The notes under the pieces: model-generated
Database searches by the model: none
Told to the model about the DNA's origin: nothing
Seen by the model: only the letters and a program-made list of their open reading frames with translations
Virus record (IMG/VR): IMGVR_UViG_2681813268_000005
DNA length: 7,825 nt
DNA from: a virus
Lineage: Duplodnaviria; Heunggongvirae; Uroviricota; Caudoviricetes
Reading direction: 5' to 3' (one strand)
In this document: positions 1 through 7,825 of the stretch, piece by piece
How positions within the stretch are numbered: the stretch's first letter is position 1
Layout of the letters: every line of letters starts with the position of its first letter
Position numbers and translations under genes: made by a program

Positions 1-121
1 AGAAAAGCCCCAGTTAACATTACGCGTCCGGCAAGACGCTTAACATTAATCTGAGGCTCAATCTATGAACGGCAAATCTAGGTTAGCCTCTTACGTGCCG
101 AAAGGCAAGGAGAAGCAGGCT

Positions 122-277
122 ATGAAGCAGCAAAAGGCGATGTTAATCGCCCTGATCGTCATCTGTTTAACCGTCATAGTGACGGCACTGGTAACGAGGA
201 AAGACCTCTGCGAGGTACGAATTCGAACCGGCCAGACGGAGGTCGCTGTCTTCACAGCTTACGAACCTGAGGAGTAA
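122..277 (+). CDS. hokD: Hok/Gef family type I toxin (small membrane-depolarising peptide), 51 aa
   Basis: Translation MKQQKAMLIALIVICLTVIVTALVTRKDLCEVRIRTGQTEVAVFTAYEPEE matches the HokD/RelF sequence as I recall it; single TM helix plus conserved C-terminal region; AAGGAG SD 106-111 about 9 nt upstream of ATG 122. The ORF track's in-frame extension from 65 is probably not the real start. Confidence 0.85.
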   Translation: MKQQKAMLIALIVICLTVIVTALVTRKDLCEVRIRTGQTEVAVFTAYEPEE

Positions 278-347
278 GAGACCAGGCGGGGGAGAAATCC
301 CTCGCCACCTCTGATGGGTCAGGCATCCTCAATGCACCCACACTTAA

Positions 348-378
348 CCCGCTTCGGCGGGTTTTTGTTTTTATTTTC
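348..378 (+). terminator. Rho-independent terminator downstream of hok
   Basis: Stem CCCGC (348-352), loop TTCG, stem GCGGG (357-361), followed by TTTTTGTTTTTATTTTC. Confidence 0.6.
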
Positions 379-385
379 AACGCGT

Positions 386-415
386 TTGAAGTTTTAGATG
401 GTGCCGGAATAGAAT
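386..415 (+). promoter_or_regulatory. Candidate sigma70 promoter for the downstream rem-like/DUF968/rusA/Q gene string
   Basis: TTGAAG (386-391), 18-nt spacer, TAGAAT (410-415); sits directly after the hok terminator and about 80 nt upstream of the next CDS. Motif match only. Confidence 0.35.
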
Positions 416-497
416 CAAAAATACTTAAGTAGCGCGCAGGGAGAAGAGGGATGGACCCCGAACAGGGGAGTGCTATTTATCTGGAAGGATTCTGTTG

Positions 498-779
498 ATG
501 AAAATCGAAGAATTACGTGAAATTTTTAGTGAAGATGGCCTCTATACTGTGCGCGTTGAGAATGGCGCTATTGTCAGCCACTGCCTTCCAGACTACACAA
601 TTCTGATAATTCAGCCGTCTTTGCCAGCAGGCACGGGCGGCGCTCTCACGCATTTAAATCTGATTGGTACCAGCATCCCCCATGCACTGAAGAACAGGCC
701 GAATGGCTCATTCAGTGTTACCGCAGGCGCGGATGCGAGGTTAAAAAAGCCCTTAGCCTCGACTACCGTCACTGGATAA
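498..779 (+). CDS. Small hypothetical prophage protein, in the position of rem in Qin-like prophages (hok - rem - ydfU order)
   Basis: ORF with AAGGA SD (485-489) 8 nt before ATG 498 (the track's 495 start is a TTG); N-terminus MKIEELREIFSEDGLYTVRVENGAIVSHCLPDY looks protein-like, the C-terminal third is low complexity. Assignment by synteny only. Confidence 0.4.
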   Translation: MKIEELREIFSEDGLYTVRVENGAIVSHCLPDYTILIIQPSLPAGTGGALTHLNLIGTSIPHALKNRPNGSFSVTAGADARLKKPLASTTVTG

Positions 780-854
780 TCTCCGTCAGGCTCCCTTACT
801 CCGAACGGCCAACGCGTCCGTCCCGCACATTCCAGCAACGGATCTGGAGGTAAT

Positions 855-1913
855 GTGCGGGTATTACTTCGACCTGTTCTGGTACCGGAACTCGGTCTGG
901 TTATCGTTAAGCCAGGCCGTGAATCAATGTCAGCATTCCATAACGGCAGAATACTGGTGGAGCCGGAACCAAAAAGCATGCGTAATCTGCCGTCCGGGGT
1001 CGTTCCTGCCGCTCGCCAGCCGCTGGTGGAAGACAAAACATTGCTGCCGTTTTTCAGTAACGCACGGGTGATTCGTGCTGCTGGTGGTGCTGGTGCATTG
1101 TCTGACTGGCTGTTGCGCCATATTAAATCCTGCCAGTGGCCACACGGCGATTATCATCACAGCGAAACCGTCATTCACCGTTATGGTACCGGCGCAATGG
1201 TGTTGTGCTGGCACTGCGACAACCAGCTGCGTGACCAGACATCCGAATCACTCGGGCAACTTGCTCATCAAAACCTGTCAGCATGGATGATTGACGTCAT
1301 CGGTCACGCAATAAGCGGTACGCAGGAGCGTGAATTATCTCTGGCTGAATTATCCTGGTGGGCGGTCCGCAATCAGGTGGCGGACGCGCTACCGGAAGCG
1401 GTATTACGTCGTTCGCTGGGGTTGCGTGCGGAAAAAATTCGCTCTGTGTACAGTGAAAGCGACATCATACCGGGAGAGCAGACAGCCACCAGCATACTGA
1501 AGCAGCGCACAAAAAATATTGCGTTACTGCCTCACGTCCACCAGCAACAGAACCCACCACAGGAAAAGACGGTGGTCAGCATTGCCGTTGATCCGGAGTC
1601 ACCGGCTCAGTATCTCCAGCGCCAGAAATCACAACGGGAAGAGATGCCTGTATACACGCGCTGGGTAAAAACGCAGAAATGCATGACGTGTGGCAATCAG
1701 GCAGATGATCCGCATCACATCATTGGTCATGGACTGGGAGGGATGGGAACAAAGGCTGATGATTTGTTTGTTATTCCGTTATGCCGTAAATGCCGTAACG
1801 AACTACATGCCGGAGTAAAAGATTTTGAAGAGAAACACGGCAGTCAGCTGTTGTTGCTGATTCGTTTTTTAATGCACGCGAGAAATTCGGGTGTTCTGAA
1901 GTGGAAAGCATAA
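855..1913 (+). CDS. DUF968-family prophage protein (YdfU-like) with a C-terminal Cys/His cluster
   Basis: 352-aa ORF; C-terminal CMTCGN...DPHHIIGHGLGG...CRKCRNELH motif typical of YdfU-type proteins found upstream of Q in Qin-like prophages; stop TAA 1911-1913 abuts the rusA ATG. Start uncertain: GTG 855 has GGAGG only 4 nt upstream; ATG 927 and ATG 978 are alternatives. Confidence 0.6.
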   Translation: MRVLLRPVLVPELGLVIVKPGRESMSAFHNGRILVEPEPKSMRNLPSGVVPAARQPLVEDKTLLPFFSNARVIRAAGGAGALSDWLLRHIKSCQWPHGDYHHSETVIHRYGTGAMVLCWHCDNQLRDQTSESLGQLAHQNLSAWMIDVIGHAISGTQERELSLAELSWWAVRNQVADALPEAVLRRSLGLRAEKIRSVYSESDIIPGEQTATSILKQRTKNIALLPHVHQQQNPPQEKTVVSIAVDPESPAQYLQRQKSQREEMPVYTRWVKTQKCMTCGNQADDPHHIIGHGLGGMGTKADDLFVIPLCRKCRNELHAGVKDFEEKHGSQLLLLIRFLMHARNSGVLKWKA

Positions 1914-2294
1914 ATGACTGAACGCATAGAATTTGTTTTGCCTTACCCGCCAACGGTGAACACTTACTGGCGTCGTCGTGGCAGCACATATTTTGTATCA
2001 AAAGCCGGGGAGCGTTATCGCCGGGCAGTGGCGCTTATTGTTCGCCAGCAGCGGCTGAAATTAAGCCTGTCCGGAAGGTTGGCAATAAAAATTATTGCAG
2101 AACCACCGGATAAGCGCCGCCGTGACCTGGACAATATTCTGAAAGCGCCGCTGGATGCGCTGACGCATGCGGGGTTGCTAATGGACGATGAGCAGTTTGA
2201 TGAAATCAATATCGTTCGTGCTCAGCCAGTATCTGGTGGACGTCTGGGGGTGAAGATTTACCCCATAATGCTTGAAGGGCAGGTCAAAAAATGA
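1914..2294 (+). CDS. rusA: RusA-family Holliday junction resolvase (crossover junction endodeoxyribonuclease)
   Basis: 126 aa; LPYPPTVNTYWRRRG N-terminus and DKRRRDLDN...DDEQ acidic catalytic motifs characteristic of RusA; typical size; ATG immediately follows the upstream stop. Confidence 0.85.
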   Translation: MTERIEFVLPYPPTVNTYWRRRGSTYFVSKAGERYRRAVALIVRQQRLKLSLSGRLAIKIIAEPPDKRRRDLDNILKAPLDALTHAGLLMDDEQFDEINIVRAQPVSGGRLGVKIYPIMLEGQVKK

Positions 2295-3112
2295 AACTGG
2301 AAGATTTACCGAAATACTACTCCCCAAAATCCCCCGGCCTGACTGATGCATCGGCCTCAACGTCGAAAGATGCGCTGAGTATCACTGATGTGATGGCCGC
2401 GCAGGGCATGACACAGAATCGGGCTGAGATGGGGGTTTCTGCGTTCCTTGGGAAAATGGGCATTAGTATGAATGACAGAGAGCGGGCAACAGAATTGCTG
2501 ACAGAATATGCACTCAGTCGGTGTGATCGCGTGGCGGCGTTAAGAAAACTCCCGGCAGAAATAAAACCGGCAGTGATGCGTATTATGGCTTCGTATGCGT
2601 TTGAAGATTATGCCCGTAGCGCGGCGAGCAAAAAACAGTGCCCCTGCTGTCACGGAAAAAAATTTATTGAAAGCGAGGTTTTTACAAACAAGATCCAGTA
2701 TCCGGATGGTAAGCCGCCGGTATGGGCAAAGTGTACGAAAGGTGTGTATCCGTCTTACTGGGAAGAATGGAAAAAAGTCAGGGAGGTGGTAAAAGTTGCC
2801 TGTCCGGAGTGTGGCGGAAAGGGTGAGGTTTCCACCGCCTGTAAGGATTGCCGTGGGCGTGGTGTCGCCATTCATCGTGAAGAGTCGGTAAAACGTGGTA
2901 TGCCTGTTATCAGAGACTGCCAGCGTTGTGGTGGTCGTGGCTGTGAAAGGCTGCCATCAACGGAGGCATTTAATGCCATATGCAAAGTGACGAGTGCTAT
3001 CACGCTTGATACGTGGAAAAAATCAGTGAAACGCTTTTACGATACGTTGGTGGTTCGGTTTGACATTGAAGAGGCATGGGCGGAGCGGCAGTTAAAGAGG
3101 GTAACGCGATAG
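2291..3112 (+). CDS. Late-gene antitermination protein Q (lambda-Q family, 273 aa, expanded zinc-binding region)
   Basis: N-terminus MKLEDLPKYYSPKSPGLTD...ITDVMAAQGM parallels lambda Q (MRLESVAKFHSPKSPMMSD...GTDVMAAMGM, from memory); one degenerate and three perfect CxxCxGxG motifs; ATGA start/stop overlap with rusA; followed directly by a lambda-like PR'/qut/tR' module. Confidence 0.8.
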   Translation: MKLEDLPKYYSPKSPGLTDASASTSKDALSITDVMAAQGMTQNRAEMGVSAFLGKMGISMNDRERATELLTEYALSRCDRVAALRKLPAEIKPAVMRIMASYAFEDYARSAASKKQCPCCHGKKFIESEVFTNKIQYPDGKPPVWAKCTKGVYPSYWEEWKKVREVVKVACPECGGKGEVSTACKDCRGRGVAIHREESVKRGMPVIRDCQRCGGRGCERLPSTEAFNAICKVTSAITLDTWKKSVKRFYDTLVVRFDIEEAWAERQLKRVTR

Positions 3113-3117
3113 TGTTG

Positions 3118-3168
3118 TTGATTTTTCCCGAATCTGTGGTAAATTTGCTCTAACGATGGGCGTTTTAT
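3118..3168 (+). promoter_or_regulatory. Late promoter PR' with Q-utilisation (qut) region and sigma70-dependent pause element
   Basis: TTGATT (3118-3123), 16-nt spacer, extended -10 TGgTAAATT (3137-3145); AACGAT -10-like pause inducer at 3152-3157; the stretch GGTAAATTTGCTCTAACGATGGG closely resembles lambda PR' GGGTAAATTTGACTCAACGATGGG (from memory). Predicted TSS near 3152. Confidence 0.65.
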
Positions 3169-3194
3169 GCCTGACGTTAGAAGATTTTTTACAC

Positions 3195-3216
3195 CCCGCC
3201 GCCTGGCGGGTTTTTT
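3195..3216 (+). terminator. tR'-like rho-independent terminator of the short PR' leader RNA
   Basis: CCCGCC (3195-3200), loop GCCT, GGCGGG (3205-3210), then TTTTTT (3211-3216); about 60 nt downstream of the predicted TSS. Confidence 0.65.
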
Positions 3217-3338
3217 ATGACTGAAATCGCGTCAGTACAGTAAACGCGCTGGTGGCGGTGAATACCTGTCTTTCAGCTTGCTGGCTTTTTCGACAAGAGT
3301 TATTGGTGTGTCACGTTAACCGGAAAAGGGAAAAAGAC

Positions 3339-3536
3339 ATGCTAAAACAGCAGGATATGACAGAAACCGCCAGAGTGGTGTTTAATGAATTAAGCGTTAC
3401 CGAACCGGCGACAGTCGGGGAGATAGCGCAGAATACTTACCTTTCACGCGAACGCTGCCAGTTAATACTGACCCAGCTGGTTATGGCGGGTCTGGCAGAC
3501 TATCAGTTCGGTTGTTACAGACGCCTTCCGCAGTGA
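3339..3536 (+). CDS. 65-aa hypothetical protein, possible small winged-helix/HTH DNA-binding protein
   Basis: ATG 3339 preceded by a purine-rich GGAAAAGGGAAAAAGAC; segment ATVGEIAQNTYLSRERCQLILTQLVMAGLADY has helix-turn-helix character; an identical 65-aa ORF recurs at 4576-4773. The track's longer 3252 start is a GTG extension not conserved in copy 2. Confidence 0.55.
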   Translation: MLKQQDMTETARVVFNELSVTEPATVGEIAQNTYLSRERCQLILTQLVMAGLADYQFGCYRRLPQ

Positions 3537-3550
3537 AGGCTTTTTTATTT
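3523..3550 (+). terminator. Rho-independent terminator overlapping the orf65 stop codon
   Basis: GCCTTC (3523-3528), loop CGCAGT, GAAGGC (3535-3540), then TTTTTTATTT. Confidence 0.55.
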
Positions 3551-3563
3551 GTGGTAAATGGGC

Positions 3564-3594
3564 GGCTGGTGGGTGTTAGGGGCACCCACCAGCC
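3564..3594 (+). repeat. Perfect 12-bp inverted repeat (hairpin, 7-nt loop) in the leader upstream of the methyltransferase gene
   Basis: GGCTGGTGGGTG (3564-3575), loop TTAGGGG, CACCCACCAGCC (3583-3594); no U-tract follows; preceded by TGTGGTAAATGGGCGG, which resembles the PR' extended -10. Confidence 0.6.
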
Positions 3595-3686
3595 ATCTGC
3601 TCATGCGTTGGGTTCACAAGCAAACCTCAGGCCCACTGCTTTGCGCAAAAGCAGAATGAGCCTATCAGAGACAGGCTTAATGATCC

Positions 3687-3803
3687 ATGCTTAATACTGT
3701 AAAAATATCCAGTTGCGAGTTAATCAACGCCGACTGCCTGGAATTTATCCGGTCGTTACCCGAAAATTCTGTTGACCTGATAGTCACGGACCGGCAGAAA
3801 TAA
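3687..3803 (+). pseudogene. N-terminal stub of the DNA methyltransferase gene (38 codons, then out-of-frame stop)
   Basis: 3687-3792 matches the 5' end of the full methyltransferase gene (4924-5029) with one substitution; homology ends at 3792, where the sequence switches to Q-gene sequence; the methyltransferase frame stops at TAA 3801-3803. Confidence 0.7.
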
Positions 3804-4351
3804 AACCGGTAGTGATGCGCATTATGGCTTCGTACGCTTTTGAGGATTATGCCCGCAGCGCAGCGAGTAAAAAGCAGTGCCCTTGTTGCTATGGGGAAAA
3901 ATTTATTGAAAGCGTAGTTTTTACAAACAAGGTCCAGTATCCGGATGGTAAGCCGCCGGTATGGGCAAAGTGTACGAAAGGTGTGTATCCGTCTTACTGG
4001 GAAGAATGGAAAAAAGTCAGGGAGGTGGTAAAAGTTGCCTGTCCGGAGTGTGGCGGAAAGGGTGAGGTTTCCACCGCCTGTAAGGATTGCCGTGGGCGTG
4101 GTGTCGCCATTCATCGTGAAGAGTCGGTAAAACGTGGTATGCCTGTTATCAGAGACTGCCAGCGTTGTGGTGGTCGTGGCTATGAAAGACTACCATCAAC
4201 GGAGGCATTTAATGCTATATGCGAGGTGACAAACCAGATAACACGCGCGTCATGGGAAAAAACAGTTAAGAAATTTTATGATGCGCTGGTGACCCGGTTT
4301 GATATTGAAGAAGCATGGGCTGAGCGGCAGTTAAAAAAGGTAACTAGGTAA
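3793..4351 (+). pseudogene. 3' fragment of a second, divergent Q antiterminator allele (C-terminal ~180 residues, lacks N-terminus)
   Basis: Homologous to 2554-3112 of the full Q gene; central segment (3941-4180 vs 2701-2940) appears nucleotide-identical, flanks diverge (about 17 aa substitutions by eye, including Cys to Tyr in GGRGCERLP to GGRGYERLP). The track ORF 3812-4351 begins at an internal GTG; no native start or RBS. Confidence 0.7.
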
Positions 4352-4356
4352 CAAGG

Positions 4357-4407
4357 TTGATTTTTCCGGAATCTGTGGTAAATTCGTCATAACGATGGGC
4401 GTTTTAT
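4357..4407 (+). promoter_or_regulatory. Second PR'/qut copy (divergent allele)
   Basis: TTGATT (4357-4362), 16-nt spacer, TGgTAAATT (4376-4384), AACGAT pause element 4391-4396; differs from copy 1 at several positions in the initial transcribed region. Confidence 0.6.
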
Positions 4408-4433
4408 GCCTGACGTTAGAAGAGTTTCTACAA

Positions 4434-4455
4434 CCCGCCGCCGAGCGGGTTTTTT
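4434..4455 (+). terminator. Second tR'-like terminator
   Basis: CCCGC (4434-4438), loop CGCCGA, GCGGG (4445-4449), TTTTTT (4450-4455). Confidence 0.6.
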
Positions 4456-4575
4456 ATGACTGAAATCGCGTCAGTACAGTAAACGCGCTGGTGGCGGTGA
4501 ATACCTGTCTTTCAGCTTGCTGGCTTTTTCGACAAGAGTTATTGGTGTGTCACGTTAACCGGAAAAGGAAAAGAC

Positions 4576-4773
4576 ATGCTAAAACAGCAGGATATGACAG
4601 AAACCGCCAGAGTGGTGTTTAATGAATTAAGCGTTACCGAACCGGCGACAGTCGGGGAGATAGCGCAGAATACTTACCTTTCACGCGAACGCTGCCAGTT
4701 AATACTGACCCAGCTGGTTATGGCGGGTCTGGCAGACTATCAGTTCGGTTGTTACAGACGCCTTCCGCAGTGA
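4576..4773 (+). CDS. 65-aa hypothetical protein, second copy (identical protein to 3339-3536)
   Basis: Identical translation; a 2-nt indel just upstream removes the spurious N-terminal extension seen in copy 1, supporting the ATG as the true start. Confidence 0.55.
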   Translation: MLKQQDMTETARVVFNELSVTEPATVGEIAQNTYLSRERCQLILTQLVMAGLADYQFGCYRRLPQ

Positions 4774-4787
4774 AGGCTTTTTTATTT
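4760..4787 (+). terminator. Rho-independent terminator after orf65 copy 2
   Basis: GCCTTC (4760-4765), loop CGCAGT, GAAGGC (4772-4777), T-run. Confidence 0.55.
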
Positions 4788-4800
4788 GTGGTAAATGGGC

Positions 4801-4831
4801 GGCTGGTGGGTGTTAGGGGCACCCACCAGCC
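4801..4831 (+). repeat. Second copy of the 12-bp-stem hairpin
   Basis: GGCTGGTGGGTG (4801-4812), loop TTAGGGG, CACCCACCAGCC (4820-4831); identical to 3564-3594. Confidence 0.6.
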
Positions 4832-4923
4832 ATCTGCTCATGCGTTGGGTTCACAAGCAAACCTCAGGCCCACTGCTTTGCGCAAAAGCAGAATGAGCCT
4901 ATCAGAGACAGGCTTAATGATCC

Positions 4924-5982
4924 ATGCTTAATACTGTAAAAATATCCAGTTGTGAGTTAATCAACGCCGACTGCCTGGAATTTATCCGGTCGTTACCCGA
5001 AAATTCTGTTGACCTGATAGTCACGGACCCGCCGTACTTTAAAGTGAAGCCTGAGGGCTGGGATAACCAGTGGAAGGGCGACGATGATTACCTGAAGTGG
5101 CTGGACCAGTGTCTGGCGCAGTTCTGGCGGGTGCTGAAACCTGCCGGAAGTCTTTACCTGTTCTGTGGTCATCGCCTGGCATCTGATATCGAAATCATGA
5201 TGCGTGAACGCTTCAGTGTGCTGAACCATATTATCTGGGCGAAGCCGTCCGGACGCTGGAACGGATGCAACAAGGAAAGCCTGCGGGCGTATTTCCCCGC
5301 CACAGAGCGCATTCTGTTCGCGGAACATTATCAGGGGCCGTATCGTCCGAAAGATGCCGGGTATGCGGCGAAGGGCAGTGCACTGAAACAGCATGTGATG
5401 GCCCCGCTGATTTCTTACTTTCGTGATGCGCGAGCTGCCCTGGGGATAACGGCAAAACAGATTGCAGATGCCACAGGAAAGAAAAACATGGTGTCGCACT
5501 GGTTCAGTGCCGGTCAGTGGCAGTTGCCGAATGAAAGCGATTATCTGAAATTACAGGCGCTGTTTGCCCGGGTGGCAGAAGAGAAGCATCGGCGTGGTGA
5601 ACTGGAAAAGCTCCACCACCAGCTGGTGGATACGTATACCTCACTGAACCGGCAGTATGCGGAGCTGCTGAGTGAATATAAACATCTGCGGCGGTATTTT
5701 GGCGTGACGGTGCAGGTGCCGTATACCGATGTGTGGACGCATAAACCGGTGCAGTTCTATCCCGGGAAACATCCGTGCGAAAAACCGGCAGAAATGCTGC
5801 AGCAGATAATCAGCGCTAGCAGTCGTCCGGGTGACCTGATTGCAGATTTTTTCATGGGGTTGGGTTCGACAGTGAAAGCGGCACTGGCGCTCGGGCGTCG
5901 TGCAATTGGCGTTGAGCTGGAGACTGAACGTTTTGAGCAGACGGTTCGGGAAGTACAGGATTTAGTCAGCCAGAACGGATGA
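4924..5982 (+). CDS. DNA methyltransferase, beta-class N6-adenine/N4-cytosine family (orphan; no restriction endonuclease gene in window)
   Basis: 352 aa; catalytic DPPY motif (VTDPPYF) near the N-terminus and AdoMet-binding FxGxG (DLIADFFMGLGST) near the C-terminus, the beta-class motif order (IV before I); the location between Q and the tRNA cluster is typical of lambdoid and Stx-type prophages. Confidence 0.85.
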   Translation: MLNTVKISSCELINADCLEFIRSLPENSVDLIVTDPPYFKVKPEGWDNQWKGDDDYLKWLDQCLAQFWRVLKPAGSLYLFCGHRLASDIEIMMRERFSVLNHIIWAKPSGRWNGCNKESLRAYFPATERILFAEHYQGPYRPKDAGYAAKGSALKQHVMAPLISYFRDARAALGITAKQIADATGKKNMVSHWFSAGQWQLPNESDYLKLQALFARVAEEKHRRGELEKLHHQLVDTYTSLNRQYAELLSEYKHLRRYFGVTVQVPYTDVWTHKPVQFYPGKHPCEKPAEMLQQIISASSRPGDLIADFFMGLGSTVKAALALGRRAIGVELETERFEQTVREVQDLVSQNG

Positions 5983-5984
5983 TA

Positions 5985-6013
5985 TTGAAGAATTAATTAC
6001 GCGTCGTTATTAT
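5985..6013 (+). promoter_or_regulatory. Candidate sigma70 promoter of the tRNA operon
   Basis: TTGAAG (5985-5990), 17-nt spacer, TATTAT (6008-6013); 9 nt before the first tRNA; overlaps the methyltransferase stop codon. Confidence 0.5.
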
Positions 6014-6022
6014 GCGGCTCCC

Positions 6023-6098
6023 GGCCCTTTAGCTCAGTGGTGAGAGCGAGCGACTCATAATCGCCAGGTCGCTGGTTCAAATCCAGCAAGGGCCACCA
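6023..6098 (+). tRNA. ileZ: tRNA-Ile2 (anticodon CAU, presumably lysidine-modified; reads AUA)
   Basis: Hand-folded cloverleaf: acceptor GGCCCTT/AAGGGCC, D-arm GCTC/GAGC, anticodon loop CTCATAA, T-arm GCTGG-TTCAAAT-CCAGC, encoded CCA; close to E. coli ileX rather than an elongator Met tRNA. Confidence 0.9.
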
Positions 6099-6105
6099 TC
6101 ACATA

Positions 6106-6182
6106 CCGCCATTAGCTCATCAGGAAAGAGCGCCAGCCTTCGAAGCTGGCTGCGCGGGGTTCAAGTCCCCGATGGCGGTCCA
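6106..6182 (+). tRNA. argN: tRNA-Arg (anticodon UCG)
   Basis: Cloverleaf: acceptor CCGCCAT/ATGGCGG, anticodon stem CCAGC/GCTGG, loop CTTCGAA, T-arm CGGGG-TTCAAGT-CCCCG, encoded CCA. Gene name by analogy with the ileZ-argN-argO clusters of lambdoid/Stx phages. Confidence 0.85.
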
Positions 6183-6195
6183 TTATCTGCATCAT

Positions 6196-6272
6196 GCGTT
6201 GTTAGCTCAGCCGGACAGAGCAATTGCCTTCTAAGCAATCGGTCACTGGTTCGAATCCAGTACAACGCGCCA
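6196..6272 (+). tRNA. argO: tRNA-Arg (anticodon UCU; reads rare AGA/AGG)
   Basis: Cloverleaf: acceptor GCGTTGT/ACAACGC, anticodon stem ATTGC/GCAAT, loop CTTCTAA, T-arm ACTGG-TTCGAAT-CCAGT, encoded CCA. Confidence 0.85.
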
Positions 6273-6299
6273 CACTTATTTTCCCTGGCTCGCTTTTGA

Positions 6300-7319
6300 G
6301 AGTTAATCAACGCCGACTGCCTGGAATTTATCCGGTCGTTACCCGAAAATTCTGTTGACCTGATAGTCACGGACCCGCCGTACTTTAAAGTGAAGCCTGA
6401 GGGCTGGGATAACCAGTGGAAGGGCGACGATGATTACCTGAAGTGGCTGGACCAGTGTCTGGCGCAGTTCTGGCGGGTGCTGAAACCTGCCGGAAGTCTT
6501 TACCTGTTCTGTGGTCATCGCCTGGCATCTGATATCGAAATCATGATGCGTGAACGCTTCAGTGTGCTGAACCATATTATCTGGGCGAAGCCGTCCGGAC
6601 GCTGGAACGGATGCAACAAGGAAAGCCTGCGGGCGTATTTCCCCGCCACAGAGCGCATTCTGTTCGCGGAACATTATCAGGGGCCGTATCGTCCGAAAGA
6701 TGCCGGGTATGCGGCGAAGGGCAGTGCACTGAAACAGCATGTGATGGCCCCGCTGATTTCTTACTTTCGTGATGCGCGCGCGGCCCTGGGGATAACGGCA
6801 AAACAGATTGCAGATGCCACAGGAAAGAAAAACATGGTGTCGCACTGGTTCAGTGCCAGTCAGTGGCAGCTACCGAACGAAAGCGATTATCTGAAATTAC
6901 AGTCGCTGTTTGCCCGGGTGGCAGAAGAGAAACATCAGCGCGGTGAACTGGAAAAGCCCCACCACCAGCTGGTGGATACGTATACGTCACTGAACCGGCA
7001 GTATGTGGAGCTGCAGAGTGAATATAAGCATCTGCGGCGGTATTTTGGTGTGACGGCGCAGGTGCCGTACACGGATGTGTGGACACATAAACCGGTGCAG
7101 TTCTATCCCGGGAAACATCCGTGCGAAAAACCGGCAGAAATGCTGCAGCAGATAATCAGCGCAAGCAGTCGTCCGGGAGACCTGGTTGCAGATTTTTTTA
7201 TGGGCTCAGGTTCAACGGTAAAAGCGGCACTGGCGCTCGGGCGTCGTGCGATTGGCGTTGAACTGGAGACCGGACGTTTTGAGCAGACAGTCAGGGAAGT
7301 TCAGGATTTAATCGTTTGA
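6300..7319 (+). pseudogene. Second DNA methyltransferase copy, 5'-truncated (first ~10 codons and start codon missing), divergent 3' half
   Basis: Homology to the full gene begins at 6300 directly after an in-frame TGA (6297-6299); no ATG before the DPPY codons (6372-6383); first canonical start is GTG 6390, downstream of DPPY. The first ~480 nt are nearly identical to the full copy, the remainder diverges (e.g. DLVADFFMGSGST, different C-terminus). Confidence 0.6.
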
Positions 7320-7330
7320 AACGGATGAGA

Positions 7331-7359
7331 TTGCAGAATTAATTACGCACCATTATTAT
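7331..7359 (+). promoter_or_regulatory. Candidate sigma70 promoter of the second tRNA operon copy
   Basis: TTGCAG (7331-7336), 17-nt spacer, TATTAT (7354-7359), 9 nt before the tRNA. Confidence 0.5.
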
Positions 7360-7368
7360 TCTGCTCCC

Positions 7369-7444
7369 GGCCCTTTAGCTCAGTGGTGAGAGCGAGCGAC
7401 TCATAATCGCCAGGTCGCTGGTTCAAATCCAGCAAGGGCCACCA
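7369..7444 (+). tRNA. ileZ: tRNA-Ile2 (anticodon CAU), second copy
   Basis: Appears sequence-identical to 6023-6098. Confidence 0.9.
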
Positions 7445-7451
7445 TCACATA

Positions 7452-7528
7452 CCGCCATTAGCTCATCAGGAAAGAGCGCCAGCCTTCGAAGCTGGTTGCG
7501 CGGGGTTCAAGTCCCCGATGGCGGTCCA
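7452..7528 (+). tRNA. argN: tRNA-Arg (anticodon UCG), second copy
   Basis: Same cloverleaf as 6106-6182, with one substitution in the variable loop (TTGCG vs CTGCG). Confidence 0.85.
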
Positions 7529-7541
7529 TTATCTGCATCAT

Positions 7542-7618
7542 GCGTTGTTAGCTCAGCCGGACAGAGCAATTGCCTTCTAAGCAATCGGTCACTGGTTCGA
7601 ATCCAGTACAACGCGCCA
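7542..7618 (+). tRNA. argO: tRNA-Arg (anticodon UCU), second copy
   Basis: Appears sequence-identical to 6196-6272. Confidence 0.85.
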
Positions 7619-7632
7619 CACTTATTTTCCCT

Positions 7633-7658
7633 GGCTCGCTTTTGTGGGCCTTTTTTTT
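7633..7658 (+). terminator. Rho-independent terminator of the tRNA operon
   Basis: GGCTCGC (7633-7639), loop TTTT, GTGGGCC (7644-7650; 7-bp stem with two G-U pairs), then TTTTTTTT (7651-7658). The matching sequence after the first tRNA cluster is interrupted inside the loop at about 6296. Confidence 0.55.
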
Positions 7659-7825
7659 AAATGTCTCACAATTCAGGCGGTTGACTGTTGTCTGGTTTGC
7701 GGGGAGTTTGTTAAAAGAAACTGGCATGGTGAATCCCCCTGTGCGGAGGGGCAATCAGCGAGTAGGTATATGGGATAATCGCGGATTCAGGTGCTGGTAC
7801 TGAATTCACCGGGAGGCACCCGGCA

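Follow-up and report, generated by a model that had tools for sequence, protein, structure and literature searches.

The stretch of DNA analysed here, called the window throughout (positions 1-7825, the whole 7,825 nucleotides (nt) of IMG/VR virus record IMGVR_UViG_2681813268_000005), carries a late-regulatory module of the lambdoid type. The gene by which a lambdoid Q-dependent module is recognized, that of a Q-family antiterminator, is present in full (PF03589, E=1e-49), and its homologues in RefSeq are annotated as 'antitermination protein'. Downstream of Q lie orf65, which encodes a hypothetical protein of 65 amino acids (aa), a DNA methyltransferase gene of the N6_N4 family (PF01555) and a set of tRNA genes. 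The tRNAs with anticodons CAT, TCG and TCT stand next to one another downstream of the methylase, as in clusters of the ileZ-argN-argO type; the homologous tRNAs are annotated as tRNA-Ile, tRNA-Arg and tRNA-Arg in RefSeq, and argN is named in Shiga toxin (Stx) phage records. Much of this module occurs more than once. A first-pass annotation, made by a model from the letters of the window, had counted Q once in full and once as a 3' fragment, orf65 twice, the 5' end of the methyltransferase gene three times and the tRNA operon twice, and each of these counts was confirmed (from the list of open reading frames (ORFs) for orf65, with ARAGORN for the tRNAs; coordinates are given in Table 1).

Self-BLAST of the window provides the outline of the repetition. 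Positions 2552-3792 match positions 3791-5029 as a direct repeat at 94.0% over 1,244 columns, and positions 4950-6298 match positions 6296-7644 as a second direct repeat at 96.1% over 1,350 columns. The two repeats overlap each other, their similarity is far above chance, and an 80-nt segment from the 5' part of the methyltransferase gene is found at three places (3713-3792, 4950-5029 and 6296-6375). The methyltransferase gene accordingly appears in three forms: a 5' stub, a full copy and a 5'-truncated copy. The differences between copies are clustered and not spread evenly; exactly identical runs are seen at 2694-2942 (249 nt), 3332-3715 (384 nt) and 4954-5432 (479 nt). The identical cores with divergent flanks that the first-pass annotation had described are thus present. 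Two explanations had been offered for them, repeated recombination between different lambdoid late-region alleles and a mis-assembly of paralogous prophages.

The record from which the window derives shows how the copies are joined. An exact-protein look-up of the Q allele identified the window as the entire draft contig CXEW01000199.1 of assembly GCA_001260755.1 (7,825 base pairs (bp)). The exact allele was found in two contigs only, this one and locus L033 (L-numbers, such as L002, L003, L010, L032 and L033, are our labels for the homologous loci compared; L032 is the deposited CXEW01000199.1). In a position-by-position comparison, the window and the deposited record mismatch only at 3790 and 6299, where the window has 'A' and the record has 'N'. 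These are the only two Ns in the 7,825 nt, and both are located within 0-2 nt of the only two non-homologous junctions, J1 (3790) and J2 (6299). With Ns at both non-homologous junctions, the deposited 'contig' is therefore a scaffold of three pieces, a, b and c, held together by single-N placeholders. A real tandem or nested duplication would present determined, contiguous sequence at its junctions, and here an N is found at 3790 and at 6299; a scaffold mis-join would present a placeholder N at each novel adjacency, which is indeed the observed arrangement.

The two Ns might instead be ordinary low-quality calls in a truly contiguous sequence, as single ambiguous bases do occur in draft consensus. 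However, the chance that both would fall at the junctions is approximately (5/7825)^2, which is less than 1e-6, and such calls would leave unexplained the overlap of pieces a and c documented below; we regard this possibility as practically nil. Junctions mediated by a microhomology of 2-5 nt ('ACC' at J1 and 'TTGAG' at J2) were also considered and were rejected, as the junction bases are Ns in the record. The apparent microhomology is due in part to the substitution of N by A. The substitution also introduces a TGA, and the 344-aa gene that the record has across J2 can therefore not be translated from the window.

Table 1. Features of the window and the three pieces of the scaffold (positions are those of the window).
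Feature	Positions	Strand	Basis and remarks
Scaffold piece a	1..3789	+	ends at N 3790; hokD through Q and orf65 to the first 103 nt of the methyltransferase gene
hok/gef-family type I toxin (hokD-like)	65..277	+	Pfam PF01848, E=3e-23; hokD in homologous RefSeq loci
DUF968/HNHc_6 protein (ydfU-like), 352 aa	855..1913	+	Pfam PF06147, E=2.7e-62; exact protein in single-copy loci L018-L025
RusA Holliday-junction resolvase	1914..2294	+	Pfam PF05866
Late antiterminator Q, complete, QuuQ-type, 273 aa	2291..3112	+	Pfam PF03589 Antiterm, E=1e-49; four CxxCxGxG zinc motifs
Terminator-like hairpin and T-run, candidate tR'	3195..3220	+	consensus scan; 83 nt after the Q stop
orf65, 65-aa hypothetical protein, copy in piece a	3339..3536	+	ORF list; 65-aa gene in L032
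Terminator-like hairpin after orf65	3523..3540		consensus scan
Methyltransferase gene, 5' stub	3687..3789
Junction J1	3790..3790	.	'N' in record, 'A' in window; scaffold join, not sequence
Scaffold piece b	3791..6298	+	between the two Ns; paralogous partial module from another prophage copy
Q, 3' fragment	3791..4351		in piece b
Paralogous terminator-like hairpin and T-run	4432..4461	+	consensus scan; in piece b
orf65, second copy	4576..4773		ORF list; in piece b
Methyltransferase gene, full, 352 aa	4924..5982		in piece b
Paralogous tRNA cluster CAT, TCG, TCT	6023..6272	+	ARAGORN, Rfam RF00005; in piece b
Junction J2	6299..6299	.	'N' in record, 'A' in window; scaffold join
Scaffold piece c	6300..7825	+	methyltransferase gene from codon 11, tRNAs, terminator-like hairpin, start of STnc100-like small RNA (sRNA)
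Methyltransferase gene, 5'-truncated	6300..7319		in piece c
tRNA cluster, anticodons CAT, TCG, TCT	7369..7618	+	ARAGORN, Rfam RF00005; of the a+c prophage
Terminator-like hairpin after tRNAs	7633..7650	+	consensus scan; intact in piece c
STnc100-family sRNA, start	7695..7825	+	Rfam RF02076, 91 bits against a gathering score of 47; 3' end cut by contig end

The relationship among the three pieces becomes clear from an exact suffix/prefix test. The 73 nt that end piece a (3717-3789) recur without a difference as the 73 nt that open piece c (6300-6372), and no overlap was found between any other pair of the three pieces. When a and c are merged through this overlap, the resulting 5,242 bp align in one piece to single-copy loci (98.9% with one gap for L002, 97.8% for the L010-type) and encode a 349-aa methyltransferase that is 100% identical to the L003 protein, a known allele. 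Removal of the interloper b from a mis-joined scaffold would be expected to return a canonical colinear locus with intact genes, and merged a+c is such a locus. The locus is really single-copy, in the order hokD - DUF968 - rusA - Q - (PR'/tR') - orf65 - N6/N4 DNA methyltransferase - tRNA(CAT)/Arg(TCG)/Arg(TCT), and piece b, a paralogous copy, does not belong in the place between a and c where the scaffold has it. The nested repeat is, with little room for doubt, a scaffolding artefact and not a real feature. Mis-assembly of paralogous prophages is consequently the explanation that survives from the first-pass annotation (a single N at both joins, an exact overlap of a and c, and junctions that are in no other public sequence searched), and repeated recombination between lambdoid alleles is the one that does not. 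The two Q-responsive late promoters in series and the doubled tRNA dosage, proposed for the case that the repeat is real, are left unsupported, as no determined base joins the copies.

At position 3716 (the column of 4953 and 6299), piece a has C, against T in each of the 28 other alleles examined. The overlap of a and c starts at the base right after this column, and piece c begins right after the same column. This polymorphism, or a contig-end error at the site, may be behind the branch in the assembly graph.

Were the order of the pieces correct and the joins simply unsequenced, the window would represent a real heterologous tandem array (Q ... MTase' / 'Q ... MTase-tRNAs / 'MTase-tRNAs, in which MTase is the methyltransferase gene) from two illegitimate recombinations, with two Q-responsive late leaders in series and a doubled set of rare-codon tRNAs. 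The scaffolder did set this order and orientation, presumably from read pairs, and the copies are divergent, as exchange between prophages would make them. Mosaicism is a known feature of lambdoid late regions, and prophages that share a host are well known to recombine. But a novel junction is unique and easily assembled sequence, yet both joins are N; the exact a/c overlap, which restores a known gene, would be an extraordinary coincidence if b lay between the two; and two independent rare events would be needed within 2.5 kb of one isolate. Neither J1 nor J2 was found in the collections searched. With 300-nt queries, no genome among 5,426 finished Escherichia coli genomes covers more than about half of the query, whereas each half matches at 100% in many of the same genomes, and the exact 30-31-nt strings of J1 and J2 gave no match in IMG/VR, among the GTDB species representatives or in the JGI metagenomes. 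A real duplication should be reproducible in independent assemblies or related genomes, and neither junction is. We judge a real array to be very improbable.

The related loci agree on a single-copy arrangement. All of the approximately 30 that were inspected are single-copy, with examples in E. coli 55989, TUM10008, strain 131 and the 729 series, and the gene order in finished genomes is hokD - (variable) - DUF968 - RusA - antitermination protein - 65-aa ORF - DNA methyltransferase - tRNA-Ile - tRNA-Arg - tRNA-Arg. The module is present in 4,823 of the 5,426 finished E. coli genomes, and the number of places per genome has a median of 2 and reaches 14. A repeat in several copies, with identical cores as long as those described above, can mislead the linking of contigs by read pairs. 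The 179-aa product of the Q fragment was not on record in the exact-protein look-up. A 309-aa methyltransferase product does have records, all of them on contigs that are single-copy or broken.

Two of these loci, L005 (2391-2756 and 2886-3815) and L006 (2056-2415 and 2535-3464), carry an ORF of 119-121 aa in place of orf65, followed by the 309-aa methyltransferase, which is N-terminally short. Both are metagenome scaffolds from ENA. Because these loci are single-copy, a frameshift or variant at the 5' end of the methyltransferase gene probably exists in nature. The contigs of L007 and L009, from independent short-read assemblies, start at the equivalent of window position 6390, which is 120 nt into the methyltransferase gene; this shows that the conserved 5' core of the gene is a habitual assembly breakpoint.

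Allele comparison provides insights into the origin of the pieces. Piece a is of the L010-type up to approximately position 2850 and of the L002-type thereafter. Its left 2.85 kb are ~99.8% identical to the L010-type allele carried by HE616528.1, and the rest of a, together with all of c, is of the E. coli TUM10008 type, with c at 99.8% to L002. Compared with known lambdoid loci, the combination of alleles in a+c is a mosaic of its own, L010-type on the left and L002-type on the right. In piece b, which holds the Q 3' fragment, the second orf65, the 352-aa methyltransferase and a tRNA cluster, the first 142 nt are 100% identical to a Q allele of the L003/L004-type, and from column ~2700 onward no position differs from the L010-type allele across ~2,360 nt, in keeping with b being an independent paralogous copy. 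The exact 352-aa methyltransferase of b is widespread (4,314 blocks). The L010-type allele is carried on chromosomes of ~4.8-5.0 Mb rich in insertion sequences, among them HE616528.1, which we take to be Shigella sonnei.

The same comparison bears on whether b stems from another strain, in a culture that was mixed or contaminated, in which case the repeat would still be an artefact. Piece b matches the HE616528.1-type allele at 100% over ~2.4 kb, and the split of the remaining sequence, with the left 2.85 kb of a of this type and the rest of a and all of c of the TUM10008 type, can be read in the same sense. However, co-resident lambdoid prophages with the module are the norm, at the copy numbers given above, and are enough to explain b; nothing in the window points to contamination. 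A contaminating strain is therefore an unlikely source, if a more credible one than a real array is as an account of the repeat.

The mosaicism of cores and flanks is genuine but ordinary: it consists of allelic differences between separate lambdoid prophages rather than of nested repetition within a single locus. The identical cores need no gene conversion between tandem copies to account for them, as the copies do not lie next to each other and the boundaries of the mosaic agree with alleles of separate genomes. The possibility that a and b are each chimeric internally, across the 249 nt of Q that they have in common, was considered as well and was not established. The Q protein of piece a is found independently in L033 (identical protein, 99.7% at the nucleotide level), and a Q mosaic like that of b is found at 99.4% in strain TOE17.

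A route to the artefact can be proposed. The source is a short draft contig that consists of nothing but a prophage module present in several slightly different copies per genome. The output of the assembler was three pieces, of which a and c are consecutive in one prophage. Piece b corresponds to the same part of another, paralogous late region, which would belong to a co-resident prophage or perhaps to a contaminating strain. A read-pair scaffolder would have linked the three, presumably through the long stretches identical between copies. As the homologous parts are 4-6% different, the pieces, although the scaffolder expected them to overlap, would have been unmergeable and would have been laid end to end with a single N per join. 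We infer both the kind of program that made the joins and the role of read pairs through the identical cores as their cause. Single-N insertions have been called 'indicative of construction anomalies' (PMC5902842). According to a paper on a widely used pipeline for bacterial genomes, SSPACE and GapFiller work greedily, may produce false joins and connect contigs through N gaps (PMC5320598); the single-N convention is not stated explicitly in the GapFiller paper. A literature search for the accession itself gave nothing of relevance.

Several points weigh against the scaffolding account. The absence of junction-spanning reads is deduced from the Ns and not from reads. Scaffolders draw on read pairs, and the pieces might therefore lie physically close to one another to some degree. 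The ends of b misfit a simple de Bruijn bubble: the first position at which b differs from a comes 19 nt after the start of b, and b runs on for 148 nt past the last position at which it differs from c. The 73-nt overlap of a and c implies k=74, an even value, and assemblers restricted to odd k, such as Velvet, would not use it. Post-processing or a third copy would have to have shaped the piece ends. Two explanations from the assembly graph were tried and set aside. Boundaries at k=77, suggested by the location of J1 76 nt after the single-nucleotide polymorphism column 3716/4953/6299, do not agree with the true ends, which give the 73-nt overlap and k=74. A two-allele bubble with b as the alternative arm fits only partially; b ends at no constant distance from the differences. 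As no determined base joins the copies, these loose ends leave the main conclusion unaffected.

The underlying locus is the well-known and very common late-regulatory module of the lambdoid/Stx type. Merged a+c has the same genes in the same order as the late module of lambdoid and Stx-converting prophages of E. coli and Shigella, in which rusA - Q - orf - DNA methylase - tRNA cluster precede stx or the lysis genes. It is 97-99% identical to single-copy loci in E. coli 55989, TUM10008 and avian pathogenic E. coli (APEC) strains, and the part of the window with orf65, methyltransferase and tRNAs is ~93-94% identical to Stx2a phages. The window is without an stx gene; otherwise, merged a+c shows no substantive difference from the known module.

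In its form, the repeat resembles a false tandem duplication made by a scaffolder. There is one N per join, the neighbours are homologous over 1.2-1.35 kb at 94-96% and cannot be merged, a and c overlap exactly, and the canonical structure returns on removal of b. Unlike in a clean case, the 73-nt overlap and the ends of b do not correspond cleanly to a single k value. Genuine doubles are known, as several Stx2a phage records of ~90 kb match the query at two places. The copies there are parts of two whole prophages tens of kb apart, joined by determined sequence, whereas the copies in the window are truncated mid-gene and are joined only by Ns. Caution is in order, as a short draft contig that consists of nothing but multi-copy prophage modules can be a disguised scaffold. 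Swapping the Ns for a real base before scanning hides the telltale mark, and in the present case also created a fake microhomology. Annotations of gene dosage, of a 'tandem promoter' or of truncated genes from CXEW01000199.1 would be spurious, including the 178-aa Q fragment and the 344-aa chimeric methyltransferase that are called on it.

The remaining features of the locus are minor. The hok/gef ORF has 70 aa compared with 51 aa for the hokD annotation, an N-terminal extension consistent with an overlapping mok-like frame, and an Rfam scan of the window gave no Sok antisense RNA family at gathering score. Between Q and orf65, no sigma-70 consensus promoter was detected by simple scan; PR' and qut are placed there tentatively, by homology of position. 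The predicted protein of orf65 has no Pfam match. Just upstream of its ATG, a 2-nt (GA) insertion or deletion (3330-3331 compared with 4568/4569) separates the alleles. With the GA insertion, a 94-aa ORF started by GTG runs into orf65; E. coli 55989 has an annotation for this 94-aa product, and CP001063.1 has two.

The CAT tRNAs (6023-6098 and 7369-7444) are called tRNA-Met by ARAGORN, as opposed to tRNA-Ile in their RefSeq homologues. Such ambiguity between Met and Ile calls is usual for the lysidine-modified tRNA-Ile2 (ileZ-type) of Stx and lambdoid phages. The end of piece b (6287-6298) falls within the loop of the terminator-like hairpin downstream of the tRNAs, with the break between GGCTCGCTTTTG and TGGGCC plus a T-run, a structured and T-rich site.

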